Below, one piece after another: positions 5,268 through 25,458 of a stretch of 32,000 nt of DNA (the stretch's first letter is position 1; every line of letters starts with the position of its first letter). The notes beneath the pieces are model-generated. The model saw nothing but the letters and a program-made list of their open reading frames with translations, was not told the DNA's origin and did not search any database. Origin of the DNA: Ignicoccus islandicus DSM 13165 (GTDB lineage: Archaea > Thermoproteota > Thermoprotei_A > Sulfolobales > Ignicoccaceae); the NCBI RefSeq assembly GCF_001481685.1, contig NZ_CP006867.1, positions 1,320,001 to 1,352,000 on the forward strand, written 5' to 3'. The position numbers and the translations under genes are program-made.

Positions 5268-6466
5268 CGAAGCTTAGCTACTTTCCGATTTAGTGATACA
5301 CGTGTTATCAAGTAAATTACTAATTCACCTTTCTCAAAACCGCGAACGTATGCGTCGTATGGGATTGTGGTGTGAGAATCTCTCTCCATGACGACAGCAA
5401 CCTCTCTGTTCAGTCCCAATTTCTTAAGCAACTTGTCTACTGTGATCCAGCGGTTCGCTTCAACGAAGCTCCATGTCACGAAGCCTTGTCCAATTATAGG
5501 AATATTTCCATCCTTACTCAGATAATCGATAGTTGGTTCTAACTCAGCTATTCTAAGACCTAATTCGCGTGCTTTTCTTCGAAGGTGACACGCCGGGCAA
5601 ATATCTCCGTAAGATATGGACCCACAATACTTGCACCTTTTAATAGATTCGAGATCTTTCTCTAATTTTATACTTTCCCCTAATCTTTGGAGGTTCCTTA
5701 GAGTTCTCAGCTTAATCGAAGGGTGTTCGACCTCTATTTCGTGCATGAAGTTCCTTATCCTGTCTGCGAAGAGTATACCTACGTCGTATAAGGGACACCT
5801 CTCTTTGATCCATTCGAGTCTCTTATTTATCGCGAAGGCTAGGACGTCTCGTTCATATATCCAGAAAAGCGGCTTTACGCGTCCTAGAGCACCTGGCAGA
5901 GGTTCTTCAATAGCTGTAATCTTCCTCAGGTTCTCAATATCGGATGAAAGCAATGAGGTTAGGCCGACTTGAAGCATATCGTCTAGGTTATGTCCCGTTG
6001 AAACGTATCTATAACCTAGTCTAGTCCCTACCAAGTTTATTGCATGATTTCGTATTAGAGAACACAAACCACAAGGTTTTCTCTTAAGTTCACGATAGTG
6101 AAGTGCTGTAAACCCATATACATCGAACGCGTGAACAGTTACGTGTTCTATTCCGAGTTCTTGGGAATACTTTGCGGAAACCTTGGCTTCTAGCGTAGTG
6201 TACTTGGGAACAGTATCCACGGTTACAGACTTTAAATCTTCAATTTCACCCCTTTCCTTCAGCTTACTTAACAGATAGATCATTGTCAAACTATCTTTGC
6301 CGCCCGAGGTAGCAACGAGGATTCTCTTCGGTAACTTAATTCTCTTTACCCTCTTTATAAGAAATTCTTCGAAATGGTCCTTACATAGTCGTAGCTTAGC
6401 ATAGGGTAATGTTACAACCGCTTCTTTAGAACACAGACTACATTTCGGGCGGCGTACCTCTACCAT
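5264..6466 (-). CDS. TtuA/NcsA-like PP-loop ATP pyrophosphatase (predicted tRNA thiolase) with ~95-aa C-terminal extension
   Basis: Zn-finger 1 is CSLC...CKDH and the PP-loop is VATSGGKDS. Fe-S ligand candidates are PCGLCSLIR and ERCPL, followed by GHNLDD. Zn-finger 2 is CKYCGS...CPACH. An extra tail follows residue ~300. Confidence 0.75.
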   Translation of the reverse strand: MVEVRRPKCSLCSKEAVVTLPYAKLRLCKDHFEEFLIKRVKRIKLPKRILVATSGGKDSLTMIYLLSKLKERGEIEDLKSVTVDTVPKYTTLEAKVSAKYSQELGIEHVTVHAFDVYGFTALHYRELKRKPCGLCSLIRNHAINLVGTRLGYRYVSTGHNLDDMLQVGLTSLLSSDIENLRKITAIEEPLPGALGRVKPLFWIYERDVLAFAINKRLEWIKERCPLYDVGILFADRIRNFMHEIEVEHPSIKLRTLRNLQRLGESIKLEKDLESIKRCKYCGSISYGDICPACHLRRKARELGLRIAELEPTIDYLSKDGNIPIIGQGFVTWSFVEANRWITVDKLLKKLGLNREVAVVMERDSHTTIPYDAYVRGFEKGELVIYLITRVSLNRKVAKLR

Positions 6467-9139: not shown

Positions 9140-11119
9140 TTGAAGAGAAGTGAACTGCTGAAGTACGTTGCCTTACTAACGCTTTTGATAGCATTAGCGT
9201 CAATCTCTGGTCAAGCATGGGACGATTACGTATTCATTGAATCTGCACGTCTACTTCTTCAAGGAAAGGATCCCTATGCATATTCTGATAGCATTAAGGC
9301 TTATGTAGTTGGTTTAGGGCCAATGTGGGTAACCTATCCTCCATTGCCGTTGCTCTTATGGGCGCTTTCGATTTCGCCGCTAGTCTTACTAAAAGTTCCA
9401 CTCTCATACTTATATTTACTCTTCATAAAACTTCCGTCAATCGTAAGTATACTATTTTCTATAACTATAGCAAAGAGGATGAACGCTAACTGGAAGATAT
9501 TGTTGTTAAACCCAATAGTAATAACCTCGATATTCATTCACGGTATGTTTGATTCCATCGTAGCCTTCTTCTTGTTACTTGCTCTCTACTTCCTTATAAG
9601 TGGAAAGGTTGAATACGGTGGGATTGCGTATGGATTAGCGCTATCCACGAAACAGCACGCTATTTTAGCACTCCTACCGATACTTTTCTATATTTATAGG
9701 AAATTTGAATCGCTTCGGATGATTTTAAGATTCGGACTAATGGCACTTGGAACTTTCGTCCTAATAATCTTACTTTACTCGTCTATATTCGGATTCAGTA
9801 ATTTAGAAGCTTTGTTCAGATCTATATTCCTCTTTCATTCACATAGACCCCCCAATTCGTTAGGTTTCGGTGGATTTGCTGTTCTGAACTTCTATTCTGA
9901 TGCTCTGTCTGGGTTCACTGGCAATACTGCAGTAGCACTAAGTATGGGCTCAGTTGTGGAGTTATACAAGGTAATTGATAAAGCGTCTCTACTATTCATT
10001 CCATCATATTTAATTCTATCTATCATTATTAGAGATCCCTTTGAGGGCGTACTTCTCGCGTATTTGGTTTATATACTATTAAGCTACGTTGGTGCTGTTC
10101 AACACTTAGTCGTTCCTGCTGTCCTTTATACCTTCGCATATCAATCTAGCCCGTTGTTAAGGAGGTATTCTAAGTTACTGATGTATGCATTTATTCTATA
10201 TTCGATCCAACATATATTGAGCTTCTGGGACTTGTTCCCAATGGTCGTAAACCCCTTATTCCTAAAGTCGTTCGGATTATGGTTGGCCAAGGTTTCCAGG
10301 ATCATAGATTACGTTTTCGAATATTGGGATGTGGTCCTTCGGATAATTGGTTCGATATCATTGTCCCTTGCTTTCATCTCACTAGTCTCATTCATTGTAA
10401 TGTACTTTAAGGATCATAGAAGGTATGCTTCGTACCTTGTAATTGGATCGTACATATTGGAATTAATAATACTCATTGCACTGGCTCCTAGCTTAACCCA
10501 TCATAATGAGATGAATGGAAATGAGATTGTGGAGGCGAAAGGTTGGTGTTTAATAGTACCTTGGGAGAACATGGAATATCCCGGGCAAATGTACGGAGAT
10601 TACATGTCGAAGTTCGCAGTTCCAATCTATGGCTACTATTCGTTTTCAAAACCTATCGCAGATAAACTAGTTCATGAGTTGAAGGGCAAATGTAACATCG
10701 GAATATTAGCTAGGTTAGATCTCTTTAGGGGGTATGAATACACGGATTTAATAAGCTCCTTGATCCAAAACAAAGTTAAGTACGCATGGGTATTGAGTCC
10801 AAATAATTACATTGACGGAGTTGGTAGCACTTCTCCAAACTCATTTAAACGCTTGTTGGAGGTGATAAGGGTAAATACACCCGTTAATGGATATTTCAAA
10901 CTAGGAGGTATCTTGGACATCTTAAACGAAACCTTAGGATTATTTAAGGACATTACATACTATGACGGTTATTATAAGTATAATGGAAAACCGCTATTGT
11001 TAATCTTAGGTAACCTATCTACTAGGGAACTAGAAATTATCGAAAAGTACGGTTTCGCCATTGACAGATTCAATGGCACTATTATAAATATTAGAGATAT
11101 GGAGCTATCCATATCCTAA
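9140..11119 (+). CDS. polytopic membrane protein, GT-C-like glycosyl/mannosyltransferase candidate, with C-terminal soluble domain
   Basis: About 12 or more hydrophobic segments over residues 1-450. An acidic motif (AWDDYVF) follows TM1, as in GT-C/DUF2029-type transferases. The soluble ~200-aa C-terminus is unassigned. TTG start. Confidence 0.5.
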   Translation: MKRSELLKYVALLTLLIALASISGQAWDDYVFIESARLLLQGKDPYAYSDSIKAYVVGLGPMWVTYPPLPLLLWALSISPLVLLKVPLSYLYLLFIKLPSIVSILFSITIAKRMNANWKILLLNPIVITSIFIHGMFDSIVAFFLLLALYFLISGKVEYGGIAYGLALSTKQHAILALLPILFYIYRKFESLRMILRFGLMALGTFVLIILLYSSIFGFSNLEALFRSIFLFHSHRPPNSLGFGGFAVLNFYSDALSGFTGNTAVALSMGSVVELYKVIDKASLLFIPSYLILSIIIRDPFEGVLLAYLVYILLSYVGAVQHLVVPAVLYTFAYQSSPLLRRYSKLLMYAFILYSIQHILSFWDLFPMVVNPLFLKSFGLWLAKVSRIIDYVFEYWDVVLRIIGSISLSLAFISLVSFIVMYFKDHRRYASYLVIGSYILELIILIALAPSLTHHNEMNGNEIVEAKGWCLIVPWENMEYPGQMYGDYMSKFAVPIYGYYSFSKPIADKLVHELKGKCNIGILARLDLFRGYEYTDLISSLIQNKVKYAWVLSPNNYIDGVGSTSPNSFKRLLEVIRVNTPVNGYFKLGGILDILNETLGLFKDITYYDGYYKYNGKPLLLILGNLSTRELEIIEKYGFAIDRFNGTIINIRDMELSIS

Positions 11120-11858
11120 GCAACGAATTGAACTCTAGTTCGTATTCAACTTTCATTGGTTTATCCTTACCAAAGGAAATCTTCGCCATTTCCGCAGCTT
11201 GGTATGCTCGGGACGCGTCATTCAAATGAGAAATAGAGTATTTAGCGTGGGCATCTGTATCTATATTTAAGGAAAGTAGCGGATTACCAATAGTTAGTAT
11301 AGCATCATACGATTTGTTAACTTCACTTGCATGAACCTTGATTTCGTTTGTCTCCTCGACAGCACTCAAATAGACCTCATCACCAACTACTTTCGCGTCA
11401 GCAACTATATCTCTGAAATCCTTAGGTTTCATTGAAAAGCTCGCTTCTAATTCAACGTCCGGTTCTCTCAGTTCCTCGCCGATTGAGAGTTCACTTGCCA
11501 AAATTTTGAATTCCCTTTCAACACTTGTCTTCTTATTTATGTATCTTATAACGAAGTATGGTGAGCTTGAATCGTAGTTTAGCTCGACGATGTCTTCACG
11601 TGTTGCTCTTTTTATAGCATTAGCCACTTCGCTTGAAGGTATTTCTACTAGGGCTTCCCCACCTTCTACATAGTATTCCTCGAACGATGTAGAGGTTAAT
11701 TCGAATACTATCATTAGGTTGTTGTCACTACTCATTTGCCTTATAGCTAGACCGTTTTGATCTATCTTTATTGGTAATGTATCGAGAAGTTTAACTATTG
11801 GCTGCCATATTTTCTTGAATTTAGTACCACTTGGATATACAGCGCGCAGTGTTACCAT
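11091..11858 (-). CDS. pcn: DNA polymerase sliding clamp (PCNA)
   Basis: MVTLRAVYPSGTKFKKIWQPIVKLLD... through ...KVEYELEFNSLLRIWIAPYL. Length, N-terminus and the C-terminal IWIAPxL match crenarchaeal PCNA subunits. I prefer the ATG at 11858 over the track TTG at 11894. The 3' end overlaps the convergent 9140-11119 gene by 29 nt. Confidence 0.9.
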   Translation of the reverse strand: MVTLRAVYPSGTKFKKIWQPIVKLLDTLPIKIDQNGLAIRQMSSDNNLMIVFELTSTSFEEYYVEGGEALVEIPSSEVANAIKRATREDIVELNYDSSSPYFVIRYINKKTSVEREFKILASELSIGEELREPDVELEASFSMKPKDFRDIVADAKVVGDEVYLSAVEETNEIKVHASEVNKSYDAILTIGNPLLSLNIDTDAHAKYSISHLNDASRAYQAAEMAKISFGKDKPMKVEYELEFNSLLRIWIAPYL

Positions 11859-11928
11859 ATTTCTAATTACACCGAATTCTAGTAGGTCTATCAAATTCTT
11901 ATTTTATTAGCCTCGGCCACGCGTTGGA

Positions 11929-12327: not shown

Positions 12328-12548
12328 GGGTATTGAGAGTAATGATTCACTCGTATGATAACGAGATCTTGGAAAAAGCTCTAGATTCTATTAGGAAAAC
12401 GTGTAATTGTGAACCTAAAATATCTAAATCAAAACTCATTCCAAATTACGCATTTGTAGAACTCCCATTAGTAATCTCACCCGATTCCGTTTCTAGGTTG
12501 TTAAAAGAATTAGGTATAGAGGATTTCAAGTTAGTTGTAATAGATTGA
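12321..12548 (+). CDS. hypothetical small protein
   Basis: 75-aa ORF coupled to the upstream gene. The sequence looks like a compact alpha/beta protein. It overlaps the convergent ATPase gene by 103 nt. Confidence 0.4.
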   Translation: MVRVLRVMIHSYDNEILEKALDSIRKTCNCEPKISKSKLIPNYAFVELPLVISPDSVSRLLKELGIEDFKLVVID

Positions 12549-13861
12549 ATTACTTCGTCTACGTCTAATCTAATCATCTTGATTCTTCCATTATGGAATT
12601 TCACAAGAGCTTCGCCTTTCCGCAGCAACGTAACGTAGCTACAGTAATCGCGTAGAGACGTACATATCCAATTATCTTTGTCTAACCTATTAAGTTTAAG
12701 TACAATCCAAGTGCCTATGTTACTCCATATCTCATAGCTTAGATCACTTGGGGACTGGGTTGCTACTATAAGACTTATTCCCTTACTCCTTCCTTCACGA
12801 GCTATTTCTTCCAAGAGGTTACTTTCTATAAGCCACGCTTCATCAACAACTATTACCTTCCTTAGATCTTTTGAAGGTTCCATATTTACTATTTCATCCA
12901 GAATATTCTCGATCACCCTGTTAATTTCTTCTTTTCTTAATGTAGAAGTCCCCTTAAATCTGTACACTTGCACCGGTATCTCCATTTCTCTTAATATATA
13001 CTCTAGGTCTCCTTTGGGATCTATTACTATCACGTTAACGTAGGAAAGGAGTAAATGTATTCTTATTATGAGTGAAGCTAAGATTGTTGTCTTGCCCATA
13101 CCAGTGCTTCCAATCACCCCTATGTGATGTCGTATACTGGTAGGTGGAATGAATTCTATGCGATTGGATTCAATGTCGATCCCTAAGTATATACCATCGC
13201 TTATTGTTGATTCAAGTGGTGGATTAGCTAAGGCTAGAGCAATGGAAGGTACTACTATTCCATTTTCCTTTACAACCTTCGGGTTAACCATCTTCTTGAG
13301 TTCTCTTGAATCGATGTCGCGTACTTGCGCTTTGAAAAGGCTACTCAACAAGTTTTTTAATGTATATTTCTCGGCTTCCAAGCGCTCTAAACCCCTTGAG
13401 TAGAGTAGGTAATTGATCTCTATTCTCGAAGGTAGTGTAGACGTGGAATAAAGCTTCAATAGTTTTTCTAAGTACCCTATTCTCAATTCTATTCTAATAT
13501 CAGTTGGATCGTTCATTTTTTGTACTTTTAAATGAGTTAATTCCCTCTCAATACTCTTTATAATAGATACCGGATCGATGCTTTTCTTTAGTAATCGTAT
13601 TTCCAAAGCTACGTCTAAATTCAATCTGTTTAAGAACTGAGTATACATTCTAATAATCTCGTCATACTCTTCAAGAAGTTTTACTGAATCTATATCTTCA
13701 ACTCTCAATCCCTTTACATATATAGGTCCCCTCTGAGTTCGTATACGAACAGTATTGGAATCAATTTCCTCAACAACCTTCTTTCTATTCTTAGGCTTGA
13801 TTCCACTTTTACATATAATGAATGGTGTAACAATGGCAACAAGTAGTTCTATTATTCCCAT
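12446..13861 (-). CDS. membrane-anchored FtsK/HerA/VirB4-superfamily P-loop ATPase
   Basis: N-terminal hydrophobic helix IIELLVAIVTPFIIC, Walker A IGSTGMGKTT, Walker B KVIVVDEAW, then AREGRSKGISLIVATQSPSDL (HerA/VirB4/DUF87-like). Confidence 0.75.
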   Translation of the reverse strand: MGIIELLVAIVTPFIICKSGIKPKNRKKVVEEIDSNTVRIRTQRGPIYVKGLRVEDIDSVKLLEEYDEIIRMYTQFLNRLNLDVALEIRLLKKSIDPVSIIKSIERELTHLKVQKMNDPTDIRIELRIGYLEKLLKLYSTSTLPSRIEINYLLYSRGLERLEAEKYTLKNLLSSLFKAQVRDIDSRELKKMVNPKVVKENGIVVPSIALALANPPLESTISDGIYLGIDIESNRIEFIPPTSIRHHIGVIGSTGMGKTTILASLIIRIHLLLSYVNVIVIDPKGDLEYILREMEIPVQVYRFKGTSTLRKEEINRVIENILDEIVNMEPSKDLRKVIVVDEAWLIESNLLEEIAREGRSKGISLIVATQSPSDLSYEIWSNIGTWIVLKLNRLDKDNWICTSLRDYCSYVTLLRKGEALVKFHNGRIKMIRLDVDEVIQSITTNLKSSIPNSFNNLETESGEITNGSSTNA

Positions 13862-13868
13862 TACGTTC

Positions 13869-15431
13869 TTACCACGTTCTTACAACGATCCTTTTAACAC
13901 CACCAGAGAGTAGCGTAGCTAAACTATAGATCGTTATCGATATAGTTGTTAAGTGTATGTATGGGATAGAAGCTAAAAAGAACGGCGCTAAAAGTATATC
14001 TGCAGTAGATAATTTCTGCTTAGAAACCCTACTCAGAAGTTGTAGACCCAGTTTGTTTGAGAGGTAACCTAGTTCGAAAAGGCTAGGTGGTGTAAAGCCT
14101 TTCTTTCTTCCATTTATTATAATATCGACCTCATTCCCTTTATCTACATCGAAAGTGACTTTCCAGACTTCTATGCCATTCCATAATTCATGTTCTAATT
14201 TACCATTCTTAACGTTGGATGAAAGATATATGCCGACAGTTTTTTCATCAAATATTCCCGAAAATGCTATTGAAACGCCTTGACAGTTCTCAAGAGGAAC
14301 GAACTTGAATCTCATTATTAAATAACCGTCTTGAGAGGTCTCAAACTTTGGTGGAGAAGTATAATAATATAAACTACAAGGTAAATAAATTGCTATTCCA
14401 GGATCGGGTACAATTAATCCCTTCACTTTTATTTTCGAGTTAGTGAGAATAGTGTTAGGGCTAACATAGATCTTCTTCCAATCTTCTTCAGATACATCTA
14501 TCTTAATACCAAGCAATTCCACTTTGATTTCAGAACGAGGCCAAGGAACACCACCTAGTGTATATGCGGTATCAAAGAAGCCTTTTGGATTCGTTGGATA
14601 TATTCCACATATTCCTTTTAAATCACAAAAATATACTAAAGCGTATGGAACGTGATTTCCCTGTTCATCCAAGAGAGTTCCTTGAAGGTAGAATACGTTA
14701 TAAGGTCCTCTCTCAAAGACCCCGGAGGCAATCATTTCAACGAAGTTAGCAATTGTTGGACTCATTGCTACAAATAATTTCATTATAGGTATAACGAGAG
14801 GCGTCATTACGTAAGTTACAACACCTAAAGAGAACATGAAAGCACCAGCAGATTTCGTAATTTTAAATGGAATACTCATGAGCAATATACCTATGGATAG
14901 GAATCCTGGAAGCAAGAGTTCCGATATTCTAGCTAAAATATAGAGAGCAGTCCAACTATAAACAGCTAACTTGAGGCTCGAAAGAAATATGTCTAGGAAT
15001 GGTCTCGTAAACAGATTATTGAAGACTTCGATACGCGAATACGCTACGTATAATGCCTCTAACACTTTCCCTAATGGAAACTTATTAAATACAGTTTTCA
15101 TTACCTTTGAAAGATAGTCTATAGTTATATAAGTAGATGCAATACCCTTATCTATCTCCAAGATTTCTTTGATATAACTTTCTCTATCCATTCCAATAAG
15201 AGCATAAGTTTTATCTAGAAACCATAATATTAGGAAGAAGGATGAAGTGAGTGTGAAAGTTGTGATAGAATCTGAAATGAGTATGGGGGCCCACCTTTTG
15301 AGACTTGGGAGGGGAAGTGGAATCGAATAGAGGAGGGTTCCTATAACGTACGTTAGAGCGGACAACGCGGCTGAAATTGCTAATATACCTAATATTAGGT
15401 CCATTAAACTCGAACCCTCCTTGTTCAACAA
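13869..15431 (-). CDS. polytopic membrane protein with large beta-rich extracytoplasmic domain and C-terminal anchor
   Basis: 520-aa ORF. It has about 6-7 hydrophobic segments in residues 10-240, a soluble Y/G/P/K-rich region at ~240-470, and a final hydrophobic segment ILLAPFFLASIPYIHLTTISITIYSLATLL. The next gene, the ATPase, starts 8 nt downstream. The start could be the Met at 15404. Confidence 0.6.
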   Translation of the reverse strand: MLNKEGSSLMDLILGILAISAALSALTYVIGTLLYSIPLPLPSLKRWAPILISDSITTFTLTSSFFLILWFLDKTYALIGMDRESYIKEILEIDKGIASTYITIDYLSKVMKTVFNKFPLGKVLEALYVAYSRIEVFNNLFTRPFLDIFLSSLKLAVYSWTALYILARISELLLPGFLSIGILLMSIPFKITKSAGAFMFSLGVVTYVMTPLVIPIMKLFVAMSPTIANFVEMIASGVFERGPYNVFYLQGTLLDEQGNHVPYALVYFCDLKGICGIYPTNPKGFFDTAYTLGGVPWPRSEIKVELLGIKIDVSEEDWKKIYVSPNTILTNSKIKVKGLIVPDPGIAIYLPCSLYYYTSPPKFETSQDGYLIMRFKFVPLENCQGVSIAFSGIFDEKTVGIYLSSNVKNGKLEHELWNGIEVWKVTFDVDKGNEVDIIINGRKKGFTPPSLFELGYLSNKLGLQLLSRVSKQKLSTADILLAPFFLASIPYIHLTTISITIYSLATLLSGGVKRIVVRTW

Positions 15432-20186: not shown

Positions 20187-21014
20187 TTGCCTAGATGTCC
20201 TTACAGGCAATTACATATCTCAATACCGAGCGATGCCCTGTCGACATACCCCTCATTAAGAGAAAAAACCTTAGTAGCTGGATTCATTGCACGAGCTATT
20301 GCAGCTTCGCGATCGGAAAGAGTTGCTATATATCATACGGCTTCAGATAACGGTTTAGATGTTCTAATCTCCATTCTGAAATATCTAGCTGAGCCTGTAT
20401 ACCTTAGGAAGAAACTCTTTCCGCTCAAACCAGAGCTTAAGTATGTGGGAATATTACCACCACTAAATATACCTAGTCTAAATGAAGGATTTAGGGATAA
20501 GGAAAGCTCAGCGCTCGTTAAAGTTGGATTAATTGTTGACTGTCGAAAGGGATCTAGAGCAATAATAGACATTGGAGAAGAAAAGGAAGTGGTAGTACAA
20601 TACGATAAATGCAGAAAAGGAAATACCGTTATGGTATTAATAAAGGAGAATGATGAGCTGGTCGTCCTCCCTAGGAAATATGGAATTTGGCATGGCACGT
20701 ATTGGGGCTATAAGGTTACAGTGTATAAAGATCTAAACAAACTTATCGATGAATACAGGAAAAAGAAGTTCAAGGTAATTGGAACCTCGAGATACGGTGA
20801 ATGGCCAGGGAGATTGAGAGAAATCATAAGACCAGACTCTAAGGTAATTATAATCTTCGGTTCACCCTCGGAAGGTTTATTAGAAAAAGTTGATGGAAAT
20901 GTGTTTGACGTTCTCGTAAACACGTTCCCTTGCCAAGGAGTTAAGTCAATTAGACTCGAAGAAGCGATTTGGAGTACGCTAGCTCTCTATTCTTCTCTTG
21001 AGTACGGATTATAG
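20187..21014 (+). CDS. SPOUT-superfamily putative RNA methyltransferase (DUF171/COG2106-like, with inserted OB-like domain)
   Basis: LHISIPSDAL...REKTLVAGFIARAIAASRSERVAIY at the N-terminus and VIGTSRYGE...IIIFGSPSEGL...NTFPCQGVKSIRLEEAIWSTLA at the C-terminus. TTG start. Confidence 0.6.
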   Translation: MPRCPYRQLHISIPSDALSTYPSLREKTLVAGFIARAIAASRSERVAIYHTASDNGLDVLISILKYLAEPVYLRKKLFPLKPELKYVGILPPLNIPSLNEGFRDKESSALVKVGLIVDCRKGSRAIIDIGEEKEVVVQYDKCRKGNTVMVLIKENDELVVLPRKYGIWHGTYWGYKVTVYKDLNKLIDEYRKKKFKVIGTSRYGEWPGRLREIIRPDSKVIIIFGSPSEGLLEKVDGNVFDVLVNTFPCQGVKSIRLEEAIWSTLALYSSLEYGL

Positions 21015-21023
21015 AGAACGATG

Positions 21024-21097
21024 TTGGACTAACTTTGGACAAGTTTTGGACAACCTTTGGATGATCTTTGTATAAAATATTGGATACCGATTTAGAC
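21024..21097 (+). repeat. array of seven direct TTTGGACAA-type iterons at helical (11-12 bp) phasing
   Basis: Core hexamers are TTGGAC at 21024, 21035 and 21046, TTGGAT at 21057, TTGTAT at 21068, TTGGAT at 21080 and TTAGAC at 21092. Spacings are 11, 11, 11, 11, 12 and 12 bp. Confidence 0.85.
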
Positions 21098-21290
21098 AAA
21101 CCCATACGATACTTTTCTCCCAGAACTCGTTTACCGGCTTAACTATTACATAAGAGTTTTGTATAATTTACTTTATCGAATCACTATAATGAAATGTTAA
21201 CTCGTGTAATATTTCTGAATACAACTTTCAACCTGTGAAATGTTATACAACGTACTGTACGACAATGAATACGAAAGAAATCTAAGTGAT

Positions 21291-21318
21291 GTTCAAGTCT
21301 TGTCCAAGACTTGTCCAA
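21291..21318 (-). repeat. three inverted-orientation copies of the same iteron at 11-bp phasing
   Basis: GTTCAA at 21291, GTCCAA at 21302 and GTCCAA at 21313 (reverse complement TTGGAC). They lie 22 bp from the stop of the 21340-22533 gene and face the 21024-21097 array across a ~190-bp AT-rich spacer. Confidence 0.7.
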
Positions 21319-21339
21319 AGTCAATATCTTTCGAATAAT

Positions 21340-22533
21340 TCAAAGGTATTTGAGCAATTCTATTAAACGTCTATCCGCGACCCTGTATTTACTTCTCCTC
21401 TTAGATTTCGTATTGGAAACCCTTTCTACGAGTCCCTTCTTTAAGAGAGGCTCCTTTAACCTATAGTGTATCGTGCTTTTCGCAACCTCGTAGCCTTGTT
21501 CCTTTAACCATTTAGTGACGTCGCTAGGCCCGGCCTCACCGAGAATAGCCAAAGCTTTCAAGATCATTCTATCCAACTCGTCTAATTCAAACAATATTGT
21601 AGTTTCCATAGCCCTTTCGGCCTCTCTAATTGCTAACTCAATGTGTTTCTTCGTCATTTCGCCTTCTTTGGCTGCATATGTTAGTGCTCTTTGTGCAACT
21701 TTAATCGTGTCTCTTAGGATAGGGAAATGACTCCATATTTCTTCAATCCATTCTTCTCTAAATGGATAAAATTTGTTATCAGGCTTGGAATATCCCTCTA
21801 ATCTCTTTAGGAATACGTGTTTTACTTCTTGGAAATTGTATCCGGGTATACGAATTTCTATAAACTTACTTACCACATGGGGATACTTCATTCTAAAGTT
21901 TTGTAAATGGTCCGGGAGAATTGTTATTATGAAAGTAGCTTTGTTTTGGCCTTGGAGGAGTTGATCAAACCAAAAAGCTAACTGTTCGAATGAGTCCGAG
22001 AAAGCAAATCCATCAATCATAAAGATTAATGGTATTGAAGTATTATCTATAACGAAGCTTAGCGCAGATTTCAACGTATCTAGATCAACCTTTCCAAATC
22101 TCTCGAATCTCGTGAGGACGTTCTCGACGACTTGTGAAAGATATTTGAATACCTTCTCATATTCTTGGTTAACTCCTACAAAGTATATCCAGCCTGGTTT
22201 CTTGAAACCCCTTTCCAAGCCTTTGAGCATGTTATATAAGAACTTCTGTAGATTCTCATCATATGTGGTCTTTACAACGATTGGTATGTTCTTCTTTACA
22301 GATGCTTCAAGTGGTGATTTCGGATATGGTAAATCTAACTCTCTTCTCCAATAGTTCAAGAAGGTTGATTTGCCTAAGCCATAACTTCCTACAACGAATA
22401 CTCTTCCGTTCCCTTTTTCCTTAATAATTCTTTCGAAAACCAATTTCTCGAATAAGTCGTCTGGTTCATATCTCTTTACGTAAAATCTTAACATTTCTCC
22501 ATCTAGGGGTGCAGGCTCAAACCGACGTATCAA
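21340..22533 (-). CDS. P-loop NTPase (archaeal ATPase/ORC-like AAA) with C-terminal winged-helix DNA-binding domain
   Basis: Walker A VFVVGSYGLGKSTFL, Walker B-like IPLIFMIDGFAF, and a C-terminal LDELDRMILKALAILGEAGPSDVTKWLKEQGYEVAKSTIHYRLKEPLLKKGLVERV (wHTH). Confidence 0.7.
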   Translation of the reverse strand: MIRRFEPAPLDGEMLRFYVKRYEPDDLFEKLVFERIIKEKGNGRVFVVGSYGLGKSTFLNYWRRELDLPYPKSPLEASVKKNIPIVVKTTYDENLQKFLYNMLKGLERGFKKPGWIYFVGVNQEYEKVFKYLSQVVENVLTRFERFGKVDLDTLKSALSFVIDNTSIPLIFMIDGFAFSDSFEQLAFWFDQLLQGQNKATFIITILPDHLQNFRMKYPHVVSKFIEIRIPGYNFQEVKHVFLKRLEGYSKPDNKFYPFREEWIEEIWSHFPILRDTIKVAQRALTYAAKEGEMTKKHIELAIREAERAMETTILFELDELDRMILKALAILGEAGPSDVTKWLKEQGYEVAKSTIHYRLKEPLLKKGLVERVSNTKSKRRSKYRVADRRLIELLKYL

Positions 22534-22570
22534 TTCGTAGAATTCGATAGTCCCCGTATAACAAATAGGT

Positions 22571-22730
22571 GTCTAAATGTAAAAACGAGGTAAGCGTAAT
22601 CTTTGGATAATTTGGACTATTCATTCCTGCAGGAATTTGGATACAACAATATTGCAGTACGACTGAAGTATTCGTACGAAAAACTGTTAGGATATTTGTA
22701 CAAGTATTATAAGTTGTCCAAACCTGCAGG
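22571..22730. promoter_or_regulatory. divergent promoter region carrying further TTTGGAYA motifs and a CCTGCAGG-containing inverted repeat
   Basis: GTCTAA at 22571, TTGGAT at 22603, TTGGAC at 22612, CCTGCAGG at 22626-22633, TTGGAT at 22637, hairpin GTACGA-n9-TCGTAC at 22657-22677, TTGTAC at 22696, GTCCAA at 22716, and CCTGCAGG at 22723-22730. CCTGCAGGaaTTTGGATA and the reverse complement CCTGCAGGTTTGGACAA form an inverted pair. Confidence 0.55.
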
Positions 22731-22784
22731 AAGAAGGATCGAAAATAATTTCGCGAGGAGGGGTTCAAGGGGTTGGACGTTTCA

Positions 22785-23387
22785 ATGAATAAAGAAGGGG
22801 TTGCTAAACCTAAGCTAATAACTAGAATATTAAGAGCGATCTACCCATTACATGACGACGTTGTCGCTAAGGCATTCATTAAGGCAGGCCTGTATCGAAA
22901 GGCACTAGAACTTCTACCTCCTTATTGGAAAAGAATAGTAGACTTGGGATGTGGAACTGGAAGGACGTTTGAAGTTGTGGAAGAAGGGAAAGTAGTAGTT
23001 GGTTTGGACTTAACCTTAGATTTTCTTAAAATAGCAAAAACTCGCCATCGACAAAAACCATTTGATTTGGTATATGGCACAGCTACCCACTTACCCTTCA
23101 GATCTAACTCATTTGATGGAGTTCTAACCTATACTATGATGCATCATTTAACATATGATGAGAAGCTAAGGACCCTTAGCGAGATAGCCCGTGTAAGCGA
23201 TACATACGTCTTCGGGGAAGTAGGAAAGAAGCTTTGTTGGAGTTCGATATTATTGAAAATGATTGGTTCGAAAGGTTTGATATCCAAGGACGTTTTCGAG
23301 AAAGTCGGATTGAGAATAGAAGTTTGGGAGGATCCGAAGTCATTTTGTCTAATAATAGGAAAAGCGAGCAGATTAAGAAAGGAATAA
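22785..23387 (+). CDS. class I SAM-dependent methyltransferase
   Basis: Motif I IVDLGCGTGRT, with post-I VVGLDL and FDGVL. I prefer the ATG at 22785 over the track TTG at 22773. Confidence 0.8.
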   Translation: MNKEGVAKPKLITRILRAIYPLHDDVVAKAFIKAGLYRKALELLPPYWKRIVDLGCGTGRTFEVVEEGKVVVGLDLTLDFLKIAKTRHRQKPFDLVYGTATHLPFRSNSFDGVLTYTMMHHLTYDEKLRTLSEIARVSDTYVFGEVGKKLCWSSILLKMIGSKGLISKDVFEKVGLRIEVWEDPKSFCLIIGKASRLRKE

Positions 23388-23408: not shown

Positions 23409-24422
23409 TTGGGATTGAAAACGAAGATTCTAACCTCTCACTCAGGAGGCTATCCGAGGCCTCCAGAATGGCGTAAGAGCATTGATGCTTATCAAGCCGG
23501 AAAGATAGATTACAAGGCCCTTATGCGGAATTGGGAACTCCAAACGAGCTCAGTTATATTTGAACAAATGGAAGAGAACATAGACATTCTAACCTCTGGC
23601 AACTTGTTTTGGGATGATCTATTCAGACCGTTTGCCAAAGCATGGGATGGAATGGAGCTACCTGAAGTTGGTGGATATTACAGGTTTTACGAGCTCAACT
23701 TCTATTACAAAAGGGCAATAGTCAATGGAGAAATAAGACCGACTTATCCAGTCCTATATCACGAACAGAAGTTATTAAAAGAGCTAAATGGAAGATCTTC
23801 TAAAGTAGTAGTTCCAGGTCCATTGACTTTTGCGTTGCATGTCGAAAACAAGTACTATCCGAACATTAAATCTCTTTTAAGAGATATAACCTTAGCGCTC
23901 GCAACGGAGCTTGAGATGGTTAAGGACTTCGTGGACTATATTCAAGTGGATGAACCAGCATTAGTTGATCCAGAGGTTAACGACGAGTTAAAGGGCCTTG
24001 CGATTCATTTCATTAATGAATTATCAGCGTTGACTGACGAGAAGAAGATAATAGTTAAGACCTATTTCAAACCAGCAACGGACATTTACCATCTAATAGA
24101 AGATCTGGAGGTTAGCGGGATAGGTTTCGATGCTGTAAGTTGGAATTATGAAGATATGAAGGAAACAGTATCCGAATACGGATATCCTTTCGATGTCCTA
24201 GATCTCGGTATCGGGGATGCATTAAATGTAAGACTTGAACCAGTCGAAGAAACCGTAGGTAAAGTAATAGGATTAATGGATGAAATAAAGGTTAAGGAAC
24301 TACATATCTCTCATAACTATCGACTTGATCTGCTACCCTATTCGCATATTCGAAAGAAACTGAGGAGACTTAGCGAGATAGTCATTAATCTAAGAAGACG
24401 TATTCTTGAGGAGGTGGAGTAA
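23409..24422 (+). CDS. MetE-like protein, non-catalytic (N-terminal-half-like) subunit of split cobalamin-independent methionine synthase
   Basis: Same fold signature as the next gene (HSGGYPRP..., [10 protein letters not shown]) but without the His-x-Cys and Cys zinc ligands. It is immediately upstream of, and overlapping, the catalytic half. Confidence 0.65.
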
Positions 24423-24423
24423 C

Positions 24424-25458
24424 GTGAGTAACGCATATAAAATACCCAAAGTACTACCGACCACTGTTGTCGGAAGCTATCCAAAGTTTCCCGAAGCTAA
24501 GAAAGCGTTAAAATTATATGAGAAAGGCGAAATAAGTGAGGAAGAATTCGAACAACTCATTAAGGAAGCGATAAGAAAGGCAGTTGAAGACCAGATTGAA
24601 GCAGGAATAGACATAATCTCTGATGGTGAGCAAAGAAGGGAAGATATGGAAGTTTACTTTGCAGAGCGTCTTGAGGGATTCGTGGTCGGAAACAATCCTG
24701 AAGATTGGGTTAGAATATTCGATAATGTACATTATAGGAAACCCATAGTAGTTGGTAAAATTGCTTGGAAAGGACCTATGACCTTAACCGATTGGAAATA
24801 TGCAACCGAATTCTCTCAAGGGAGACCCGTAAAGGCTATAATAACCGGGCCGTATACCATGGCTGACTGGGCCTTCGATAATTACTATGGCGACAAAAGG
24901 GAACTAATAATTGATTTGGCTAAAGCTCTACAGAAAGAGCTGAAAATTCTCTACGAAGCCGGAGCTAGATTCCTTCAAGTTGACGAACCGGCCTTATCAA
25001 CCCATCCCTACAAAGACGATATTGAAATAGCAAAGGAAGCGCTTTCCATAGTCTTTAGCGGAATGGAGGATGCTAAGAAAATAGTACATATATGCCATGG
25101 AAGAGTAGAGAAGTTATTCCCAGATATTCTAGATTATCCTGTTGATCAATTCGATTTAGAATTCGTAAATAACAACTTCAAATTACTTGAGGCAATAAAG
25201 GAATATGATTACGCATCTAGCGGAAAAGAGCTCGGGTACGGAGTAATAGACATTCACTCGAAAAAGGTCGAAACTAAGGATTTCATAAAGAACGCAATTT
25301 ATAGAGTACTTGAAATTATGCCACCAGAGAAGGTCTACGTCAAACCCGATTGCGGTTTAAAAATACTGGGTGATAGGGACATAGCCTTCAAGAAAATGAA
25401 GGTGATGGTAGAAGCTACAAAGGAGGTTAGAAAGGAACTCGGGTACGACGAAAGTTAA
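24424..25458 (+). CDS. metE: cobalamin-independent methionine synthase, catalytic (C-terminal-half-like) protein
   Basis: [35 protein letters not shown] (His/Cys Zn ligands) and VKPDCGLK (Cys ligand). GTG at 24424 is preceded by GAGGAGGTGGAG (SD-like), so I prefer it to the track start at 24406. Confidence 0.85.

Follow-up and report, generated by a model that had tools for sequence, protein, structure and literature searches.

The DNA analysed here, referred to as the window, is a stretch of 32,000 nucleotides from the chromosome of Ignicoccus islandicus DSM 13165 (contig NZ_CP006867.1, positions 1,320,001 to 1,352,000), and coordinates below are counted from its first letter. The minus strand of the window carries EYM_07645 (21340 to 22533), which encodes a divergent Orc1/Cdc6-family AAA+ ATPase of 397 amino acids with a C-terminal winged helix, 100% identical to the I. 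islandicus DSM 13165 hypothetical protein of that name. About 21 copies of a 9-bp box, with the consensus tTTGGACAa derived from ten loci, flank EYM_07645, confirming a first-pass annotation that had been made from the sequence alone and had placed such repeats on both sides of the gene. Only nine close relatives of the protein (60-81% identity) were found among 5.8 billion protein clusters, their sources being I. pacificus and uncultured vent Thermoproteota, and an exhaustive profile search of 1.8 billion representatives added just 16 further, weaker relatives; a protein-based metagenome scan with EYM_07645 returned zero. The loci of I. islandicus and nine relatives (L001-L003, L006, L007 and L128-L131) make up the ten that are compared throughout. 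As judged from these sequences, the locus is very probably a self-contained module composed of a lineage-specific, divergent Orc1/Cdc6-family protein and its own complement of some 21 putative binding boxes.

The spacer downstream of EYM_07645 contains two arrays of boxes that face one another. The gene-distal array (21023 to 21099, plus strand) consists of seven boxes in the TTTGGACAA orientation, directed toward the proximal array: GTTGGACTA at 21023, TTTGGACAA at 21034 and again at 21045, TTTGGATGA at 21056, TTTGTATAA at 21067, ATTGGATAC at 21079 and TTTAGACAA at 21091. The best of these lie near the outer end (21034, 21045). Successive boxes are separated by steps of 11, 11, 11, 11, 12 and 12 bp, and a sequence check found both the seven boxes and their steps where they had been reported. 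The array holds three perfect TTGGAC hexamers (21024, 21035, 21046), four perfect TTGGA pentamers and two perfect 9-mers; the earlier count of four perfect hexamers at one-turn spacing is therefore correct for the pentamer and one too high for the hexamer. The accompanying claim that such spacing is not a product of chance stands, as the pattern TTGGAC-N5-TTGGAC with at most one mismatch has five matches in the window, all of them in the downstream spacer, against 0.15 expected, and none of 100 shuffles attains five. The gene-proximal array (21243 to 21319, minus strand) comprises about seven boxes that read TTTGGACAA on the gene strand, again with steps of 11, 11, 11, 11, 12 and 12 bp, and begins 21 nucleotides past the EYM_07645 stop codon (3-21 nucleotides across the ten loci). 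Of the three inverted copies described here previously, two (21300 and 21311) match the box well and one (21289) is degenerate; the array is in fact some seven boxes long. The best proximal boxes are the outermost ones (21311-21319 and 21300-21308), with quality decaying inward. Both period-11 arrays are detected by Tandem Repeats Finder. All four exact copies of TTTGGACAA in the window, and 9 of its 15 one-mismatch copies, fall within 21034 to 22722.

The grading of the arrays becomes apparent across the ten loci in a walk that starts at the outermost good box and moves 10-12 bp at a time toward the centre. Along the proximal array the mean number of mismatches per box runs, from outer to inner, 0.2, 1.4, 3.5, 4.0, 4.6, 4.1 and 3.7 (null value 5.7), and along the distal array, of about six boxes, 0.4, 0.7, 2.2, 3.9, 2.9 and 3.0; beyond both arrays mismatches revert to the null of 5.7. 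Across the ten loci both arrays follow a step series of 11, 11, 11, (11), 12 and 12 bp, from which a few loci depart by one step, and the mean is 11.3 bp per box. The box register lengthens toward the inner, weaker boxes. A register of 11.3 bp suggests that the DNA would be underwound in the complex.

The gap between the facing arrays is ~140 bp in I. islandicus and 120-145 bp across the loci, and the arrangement of opposed, phased arrays around an AT-rich centre that the first-pass annotation had pointed out proves to be conserved in all ten. The guanine-cytosine (GC) content of the downstream spacer is 31%, vs 40% for the window, and its AT-richest 40-bp patch (21163 to 21202, 20% GC) belongs to the lowest 0.4% of 40-bp windows in the 32 kb. 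This patch overlaps or abuts a central element, TTATACAAAA (21157 to 21166, minus strand), and in every locus the lowest-GC 40-bp patch overlaps or abuts that element and ranks in the lowest 0.1-0.8%, even in genomes of 52% GC. The central element, which the first-pass annotation does not mention, is invariant in all ten loci, occurs as a single copy in the window and resembles a TATA box; Ignicoccus TATA boxes read TTTAC or TTATAC, lie ~25-35 nucleotides before starts, and are matched by TTATACAAAA. On the strand that carries the distal boxes the element reads TTTGTATAA, which differs from a box by two fixed changes and shares the orientation and register of the distal array. In 8 of 10 loci it stands 65-68 bp (~6 x 11.2) from the innermost distal box, a count that includes three loci for which one 11-bp box step had to be allowed; its distance from the proximal array varies between 47 and 108 bp. 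When the ten downstream spacers are aligned, only the proximal array, the far-end array and TTATACAAAA are conserved. No RNA gene was recognized in the spacer, there being no Rfam match at gathering thresholds in the 32 kb nor at E <=10 within 20900-22900.

The boxes belong to the gene rather than to its surroundings. Eight of the relatives share with I. islandicus the gene order MetE-like pair, methyltransferase, EYM_07645 orthologue, SPOUT-type methyltransferase and Asd, giving nine loci with the same housekeeping synteny. The remaining locus, L002 (60% identity), has wholly different neighbours and yet retains both arrays, the central element and an upstream cluster that includes CCTGCAGG. 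Because L002 keeps all of these parts, gene and sites behave as one module independent of neighbours, and the module appears to travel as a unit. The proposal that the motif is tied to the enclosed gene and specific to the locus is thereby upheld in ten loci, the non-syntenic one included. In L002 the upstream cluster and CCTGCAGG (5856-5989 of that locus) fall within the preceding NAD_binding_7 gene as annotated, at its 3' end, so that either the annotation carries this open reading frame (ORF) too far or the sites form part of a coding sequence. Summed over the ten loci, the two flanking spacers make up 5.0 kb and contain 92 exact copies of TTGGAC (18.4/kb), against 93 copies in 146 kb elsewhere (0.64/kb, with 0.49/kb expected by chance), an enrichment of 29-fold in the spacers, and no other array of at least three phased boxes is present in the 146 kb around the ten loci. 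In a triple-box scan of genome contigs, the sole I. pacificus chromosome stretch among the matches listed was this locus, at about 1.645 Mb in CP006868, the others being unrelated bacterial stretches; in a double-box scan of metagenome contigs, 0 of 120 stretches among the matches listed encode the protein. Locus-specificity of the box is thus a statement about 151 kb from ten genomes and the I. pacificus scan match.

EYM_07645 does not reach the cut-off of any Pfam or NCBIfam model, and its family membership was established through fold and profile comparison. An initial AlphaFold2 (AF2) model from 10 close sequences, with a predicted local distance difference test score (pLDDT) of 66, gave ambiguous fold matches and was superseded by a model from 24 sequences (the ten orthologues and 14 distant relatives) with a pLDDT of 88.6 and a predicted template modelling score (pTM) of 0.76. 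The six best Foldseek matches of the latter in the PDB are archaeal Orc1/Cdc6 proteins, with template modelling (TM) scores of 0.44-0.62. The best is S. solfataricus Orc1-1 (2qby_A, TM 0.58/0.62), followed by A. pernix ORC2 (1w5t, 1w5s), Orc1-3 (2qby_B) and A. pernix ORC1 (2v1u, 0.54/0.55); eukaryotic Orc1, Orc4 and Cdc6 come next, with SSO1545 at rank 27 and MalT at rank 46. The three-part fold of AAA+ base, helical lid and C-terminal winged helix is present and nearest to solved Orc1/Cdc6 structures. The model places four helices (~78 residues) between the strands 85-90 and 169-176. This insertion (residues 95-164), bigger than in generic AAA+ proteins, is in the expected place for the initiator-specific motif, the DNA-contacting helical insertion between beta2 and beta3, and is a candidate for it.

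Profile comparison leads to the same family. A search with the family profile found P0029 at E = 4e-13, a protein that scores 371 bits on TIGR02928 (cut-off 181.3) and is therefore a bona fide Orc1/Cdc6. In an hhalign comparison with P0029, the ten orthologues alone reach a probability of 92.5%; the 258 aligned columns extend from Walker A as far as the beginning of the winged helix, and the FxPY box of Orc1/Cdc6 is aligned as well (IPGYN to FPPYN), as is the next arginine. Of two controls, P0033, which carries PF01637 among its precomputed annotations, gave 3.6% over 42 columns, and an AAA_22 protein gave a match confined to the P-loop. The Walker A motif, GSYGLGK[ST] (GSYGLGKS in EYM_07645), fits GxxGxGK[ST]; residues G52, G54 and K55 are the same in all 24 aligned sequences, and G49 is so in the ten orthologues. 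Walker B reads IDGF in nine orthologues and IDSF in P0008, and aligns to LDEV of P0029. By fold match and profile alignment, EYM_07645 is homologous to Orc1/Cdc6, and its family is a very divergent branch of that superfamily, not a member by curated thresholds. The initiator-like NTPase of the first-pass annotation thus turns out to be more than initiator-like. Assignment to the PF01637 archaeal ATPases (STAND), which the same annotation had listed as a candidate, was rejected on the absence of a Pfam match and the 3.6% hhalign probability to the PF01637-type P0033. A defence-system protein was likewise rejected, as matches to PADLOC and Avs models were at the level of the P-loop only.

That this protein reads the boxes is suggested by the way in which the two vary together. 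The recognition helix of the winged domain, AKST[IV]HYRLKE, has a single variable position, occupied by I in I. islandicus and by V in the nine others, and the ten proteins that share it are the same ten whose loci share the box. A distant homologue, P0013, has a different recognition helix and a different short motif, TGTTCGG, all eight copies of which in its 6.9-kb contig (L132) are found in the two spacers flanking the P0013 gene (1336-1704 and 2860-3449). This co-variation of helix and motif supports, without proving, box reading by the protein, and EYM_07645 is with good confidence predicted to bind the boxes as the protein partner in a cognate protein-DNA-site module. The source of P0013 is a metagenome-assembled genome labelled Thermoproteota or Korarchaeota. 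The gene following P0013 encodes another AAA+ protein with a Cdc6/ORC-like lid, and the 590-bp downstream spacer of L132 contains the palindrome TGCTGACCC..GGGTCAGCA in three copies.

The spacer upstream of EYM_07645 contains a second, differently organized set of boxes. The promoter region of the gene (22556 to 22585, minus strand) has a TATA-like TTTTTACA at 22578-22585, directly followed on its 3' side by a box, TTTAGACAC, at 22569-22577 that is absent from the first-pass list, and a second TATA-like element, TTATAC, at 22556-22561, 28 nucleotides ahead of the TTG start. Further plus-strand boxes occur between 22602 and 22644 (TTTGGATAA at 22602, TTTGGACTA at 22611 and TTTGGATAC at 22636), with CCTGCAGG in between at 22626-22633. 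At the far end of the spacer (22695 to 22730) lie a box-like TTTGTACAA (22695, plus strand), then TATTATAA (22705-22712, plus strand), the TATA-like element of the divergent methyltransferase/MetE operon, then the box TTGTCCAAA (22714-22722, minus strand) and finally CCTGCAGG (22723-22730). The 8-bp palindrome CCTGCAGG occurs twice in the 32 kb, both times in this spacer (22626 and 22723), and the two copies with their hairpin were indeed present as first described. Next to TTGGAC at the far end of the spacer, CCTGCAGG is invariant in all ten loci, including the non-syntenic L002; the copy at 22723 alone is conserved elsewhere, the 22626 copy and the GTACGA/TCGTAC hairpin being specific to I. 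islandicus. The palindrome could be the site of a second factor or a marker of the module edge.

Alignment of the ten upstream spacers gives a common order of CCTGCAGG with its box, several boxes in both orientations, and a TATA-like TTTTTACA/TTTATC with a box beside the gene, and the TATA element with adjoining box before the gene is conserved in the nine syntenic loci. Repressor sites in archaea usually lie between the TATA box and the start. Boxes occupy this interval at both divergent promoters, each directly 3' of a TATA-like element, and from their position it is likely that the protein represses both its own gene and the divergent operon. An autoregulatory operator, one of the functions proposed at the outset for the whole locus, would accordingly be at least part of the answer, the upstream boxes standing in classic archaeal repressor positions. 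Since the TATA box of the operon is directly followed by a box, the Orc-like protein may control methionine synthesis in the syntenic genomes. The operon includes two adjacent MetE-like genes (337 and 350 amino acids; 23409-25458), each matching both halves of cobalamin-independent methionine synthase, and these are preceded by a UbiE/MetW-like methyltransferase gene. The N-terminus of the EYM_07645 orthologues reads M..DFYELIRRFEP. In I. islandicus, EFYE is encoded in frame upstream of the annotated TTG start at 22533 (within 22531-22575, minus strand), and ATG, GTG and TTG are all absent between these residues and the in-frame stop at 22573-22575. Translation of EYM_07645 would begin either at TTG, 28 nucleotides after TTATAC and possibly leaderless, or at a non-canonical ATC or ATT.

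The accepted hallmark of an archaeal origin is an AT-rich stretch next to an orc gene, with initiator sites in inverted orientation on either side of that stretch. By analogy with characterized origins, the downstream site may be an orc-adjacent, origin-type assembly site with graded arrays resembling those of DnaA at oriC, a reading given somewhat less than an even chance. It is suggested because an Orc1/Cdc6-type gene stands beside inverted sites around an AT-rich centre, because the module remains intact in a different context, and because the site lies between convergent gene ends and is associated with no conserved transcript. The downstream site is found between convergent genes in 9 of 10 loci and would on that account regulate no known promoter. 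Strong outer boxes, weaker phased inner ones, opposed arrays and an initiator-clade AAA+ protein together imply nucleation followed by inward spreading of an oligomer. In the proposed mechanism, the winged helix of each protomer would read one 9-bp box, and the strong outer boxes of each downstream array would nucleate binding. ATP-bound AAA+-AAA+ contacts would extend a head-to-tail oligomer inward over the weaker boxes 11-12 bp apart, until two oligomers of opposite polarity converge on the ~140-bp spacer, whose AT-richest patch carries TTATACAAAA. DNA might then be opened, MCM loaded, or both, between the two inward-facing initiator arrays, while at the upstream boxes the protein would repress its own gene and the neighbouring methyltransferase/MetE operon.

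The closest parallels are with orc-adjacent origins of archaea such as Sulfolobus oriC1 and oriC2, Aeropyrum oriC1 and those of haloarchaea. These likewise have an Orc1/Cdc6-family AAA+ winged-helix gene directly beside the spacer, inverted presumed sites around an AT-rich stretch, and gene and site inherited as a pair. In contrast, the Ignicoccus boxes are 9-bp elements unrelated to the origin recognition box (ORB) and form two graded, 11-bp-phased arrays of about seven, the site lies 3' of the gene, the protein has D-G in Walker B and falls short of the curated Orc1/Cdc6 models, and the central 10-mer of this candidate site is TATA-like. At E. coli oriC, DnaA occupies low-affinity 9-mers 2 bp apart progressively from R1 and R4 toward the centre (PMC6070618). 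The likeness to this system extends to 9-bp boxes with an 11-bp period in opposite arrays, the strongest outermost, with a special site between them and an initiator-clade AAA+ protein as the known or presumed binder (PMC6070618). The differences are that oriC is bacterial, that DnaA binds through the helix-turn-helix of its domain IV rather than a winged helix, and that the Ignicoccus arrays are set apart by ~140 bp devoid of boxes, with the AT-rich patch in the middle instead of flanking; the sites are analogous and not homologous.

Several observations weigh against an origin. Canonical archaeal origins usually lie upstream of the orc gene, and here the site is downstream. No mini-ORB-like match was found in or near the locus, tTTGGACAa being unrelated to ORB and mini-ORB elements as the first-pass annotation had stated. 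The catalytic Walker B glutamate is absent from all ten orthologues, EYM_07645 scores 15.4 bits on TIGR02928 against the cut-off of 181.3, and it has zero Pfam matches to Cdc6_C or AAA_22. GC skew over the 32 kb does no more than follow the coding strand and is uninformative as a proxy for an origin. The TATA-like TTATACAAAA is distance-locked to one array only, and a regulated promoter fits it at least as well as an unwinding element does. An orthologue of EYM_07645 was not recovered from I. hospitalis in the protein cluster and profile searches, and hence the module appears dispensable within the genus. Canonical Orc1/Cdc6 genes exist in the genus, namely in I. hospitalis, so a further initiator is not required (PMC2614490), and Orc1/Cdc6 paralogues with a purely regulatory role are known, as exemplified by Orc1-2 (PMC6061795). 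The Orc1/Cdc6 genes of I. hospitalis have been reported to lie away from the predicted origin (PMC2614490), and that genome paper was the only work on Ignicoccus origins found in the literature. Taken with these points, the origin-type reading put forward originally is plausible and stands on firmer ground now that the protein has proved a genuine homologue of Orc1/Cdc6, and it faces a serious regulatory rival.

According to that rival, which is possible but on the whole rather unlikely, EYM_07645 is a non-initiator Orc1/Cdc6 paralogue acting as a transcription factor, like Orc1-2 of the Sulfolobales, that represses both the promoter of its own gene and that of the divergent methyltransferase/MetE operon, and the arrays downstream are an operator or enhancer for a TTATACAAAA-TATA promoter that makes antisense or read-through RNA. 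The boxes directly 3' of both divergent TATA-like elements, in the classic position of archaeal repressors, are what such a factor would be expected to show, and TTATACAAAA both fits the local TATA consensus TTATAC/TTTAC and keeps a fixed distance from the distal array; however, there is no conservation 3' of TTATACAAAA in either direction, and so no conserved RNA or ORF, and Rfam is empty. Loss of the Walker B glutamate and failure at the Orc1/Cdc6 thresholds also fit a changed function, and MalT-type ATPases, which bind arrays of short boxes, are among the fold matches. Against this, the downstream site has no conserved target, lying between convergent ends in 9 of 10 loci and next to a different neighbour in L002, its 13-14 graded, phased boxes in two opposed arrays far exceed known archaeal operators, and box clusters occur at no other promoter in the 146 kb sampled from ten genomes. 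Orc1-2, the DNA-damage regulator of the Sulfolobales, provides the precedent of a paralogue that is dispensable as an initiator and binds at promoters through a short sequence motif, and it demonstrates that this fold can be put to use in transcription control (PMC6061795, PMC9738581). Orc1-2 differs in being a canonical family member that recognizes a single ANTTTC motif at many promoters, whereas the boxes described here are concentrated around their own gene in long phased arrays, with no regulon visible in 146 kb. The MalT comparison is similarly partial: PF01637/STAND proteins combine a P-loop ATPase, a helical domain and a winged helix or helix-turn-helix, and MalT binds short-box arrays cooperatively, but EYM_07645 has no PF01637 match, aligns to such a protein at 3.6% by hhalign, and matches these folds at ranks well below Orc1/Cdc6.

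An architectural or partition complex is improbable. In such a complex the protein would coat the arrays and bridge the upstream and downstream clusters, looping out the 1.2-kb gene and yielding either tight autoregulation or a centromere-like, chromosome-organizing landmark. Box clusters on both sides of the gene in all ten loci, the ability of AAA+ proteins to oligomerize and so possibly to bridge clusters, and the travelling of the module as a unit are in keeping with it; looping nevertheless leaves unexplained the inward polarity, the affinity gradients and the AT-rich centre with its invariant 10-mer. The partition site suggested in the first-pass annotation lacks an adjacent partner gene; a ParA-like gene ~6 kb away matches the NUBPL iron-transfer P-loop NTPase family (PF10609). 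That a captured plasmid, virus or integrative element has left its origin and Rep gene behind here is very unlikely; a captured replicon was also raised in that annotation on the grounds of layout. An initiator-like gene with iteron-like arrays is indeed a plasmid arrangement, the module is found in two different genomic contexts, and among viral folds there was a single weak match (TM 0.25), to a 'plasmid replication protein' of a haloarchaeal phage. Integrase, tRNA and other mobile-element genes are nonetheless absent from the 32 kb, tblastn was empty against 72,556 plasmids and 50,697 phages, as was IMG/VR, PHROGs matches were weak, housekeeping synteny is common to nine loci, and GC content is like that of the surroundings. 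Iteron plasmids resemble the locus in having direct-repeat arrays beside the gene of the binder and mixed-orientation copies over its own promoter; they differ in that the protein here is an AAA+ Orc-like ATPase and not RepA, pi or TrfA, that the period is one helical turn and not two, and that the locus is chromosomal, syntenic and without mobile-element genes. That the repeats are due to chance, or are a generic promoter or nucleoid-protein motif found all over the genome, is scarcely credible: locus-specificity is based on the sampled 151 kb, but the 29-fold enrichment over 146 kb, the lack of other arrays of at least three phased boxes, the failure of all 100 shuffles to reach the observed phased pairs and the position-by-position conservation in ten loci all speak against such a motif, as does the triple-box scan, where this locus was the only I. 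pacificus stretch among the matches listed.

Archaeal origins have to our knowledge so far been tied to recognizable Orc1/Cdc6 or WhiP genes and ORB-type elements. A bolder form of the origin reading, for now doubtful, is that the locus represents an unrecognized class of archaeal origin, in which a highly divergent Orc1/Cdc6 paralogue confined to this lineage uses no ORB and forms two converging ATP-dependent filaments on graded arrays of 9-bp boxes with an 11-bp period, following an independently evolved DnaA-oriC-like logic with a TATA-like element at the melting point. If the site does fire as an origin, initiator-clade AAA+ proteins of archaea would share with DnaA the logic of a strong anchor and a weak phased array, and the range of initiator types for which origin-prediction tools should search would widen. 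If the protein is instead a regulator, it would stand beside Orc1-2 as a second example, arisen independently, of an Orc paralogue recruited to transcription control, and its operator would be unusually elaborate. Origin or regulator alike, a fold, a family and a putative DNA target are thereby assigned to a family of 'hypothetical proteins'. The module is also a compact test object, consisting of one protein, one 9-bp box, two graded arrays and one invariant central element, available in ten natural variants.

The ced genes of Sulfolobus are targets of Orc1-2. In the window the PCNA gene (11091-11894) adjoins Ced DNA-import genes, comprising a HerA/FtsK-like ATPase gene (12446-13861) and an ORF of 520 amino acids (13869-15431), and no boxes were seen at the ced gene promoters of the window. 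The counterpart of the 520-amino-acid ORF in the I. pacificus locus is annotated CedA1, and these genes of the window lie ~6 kb from the module.

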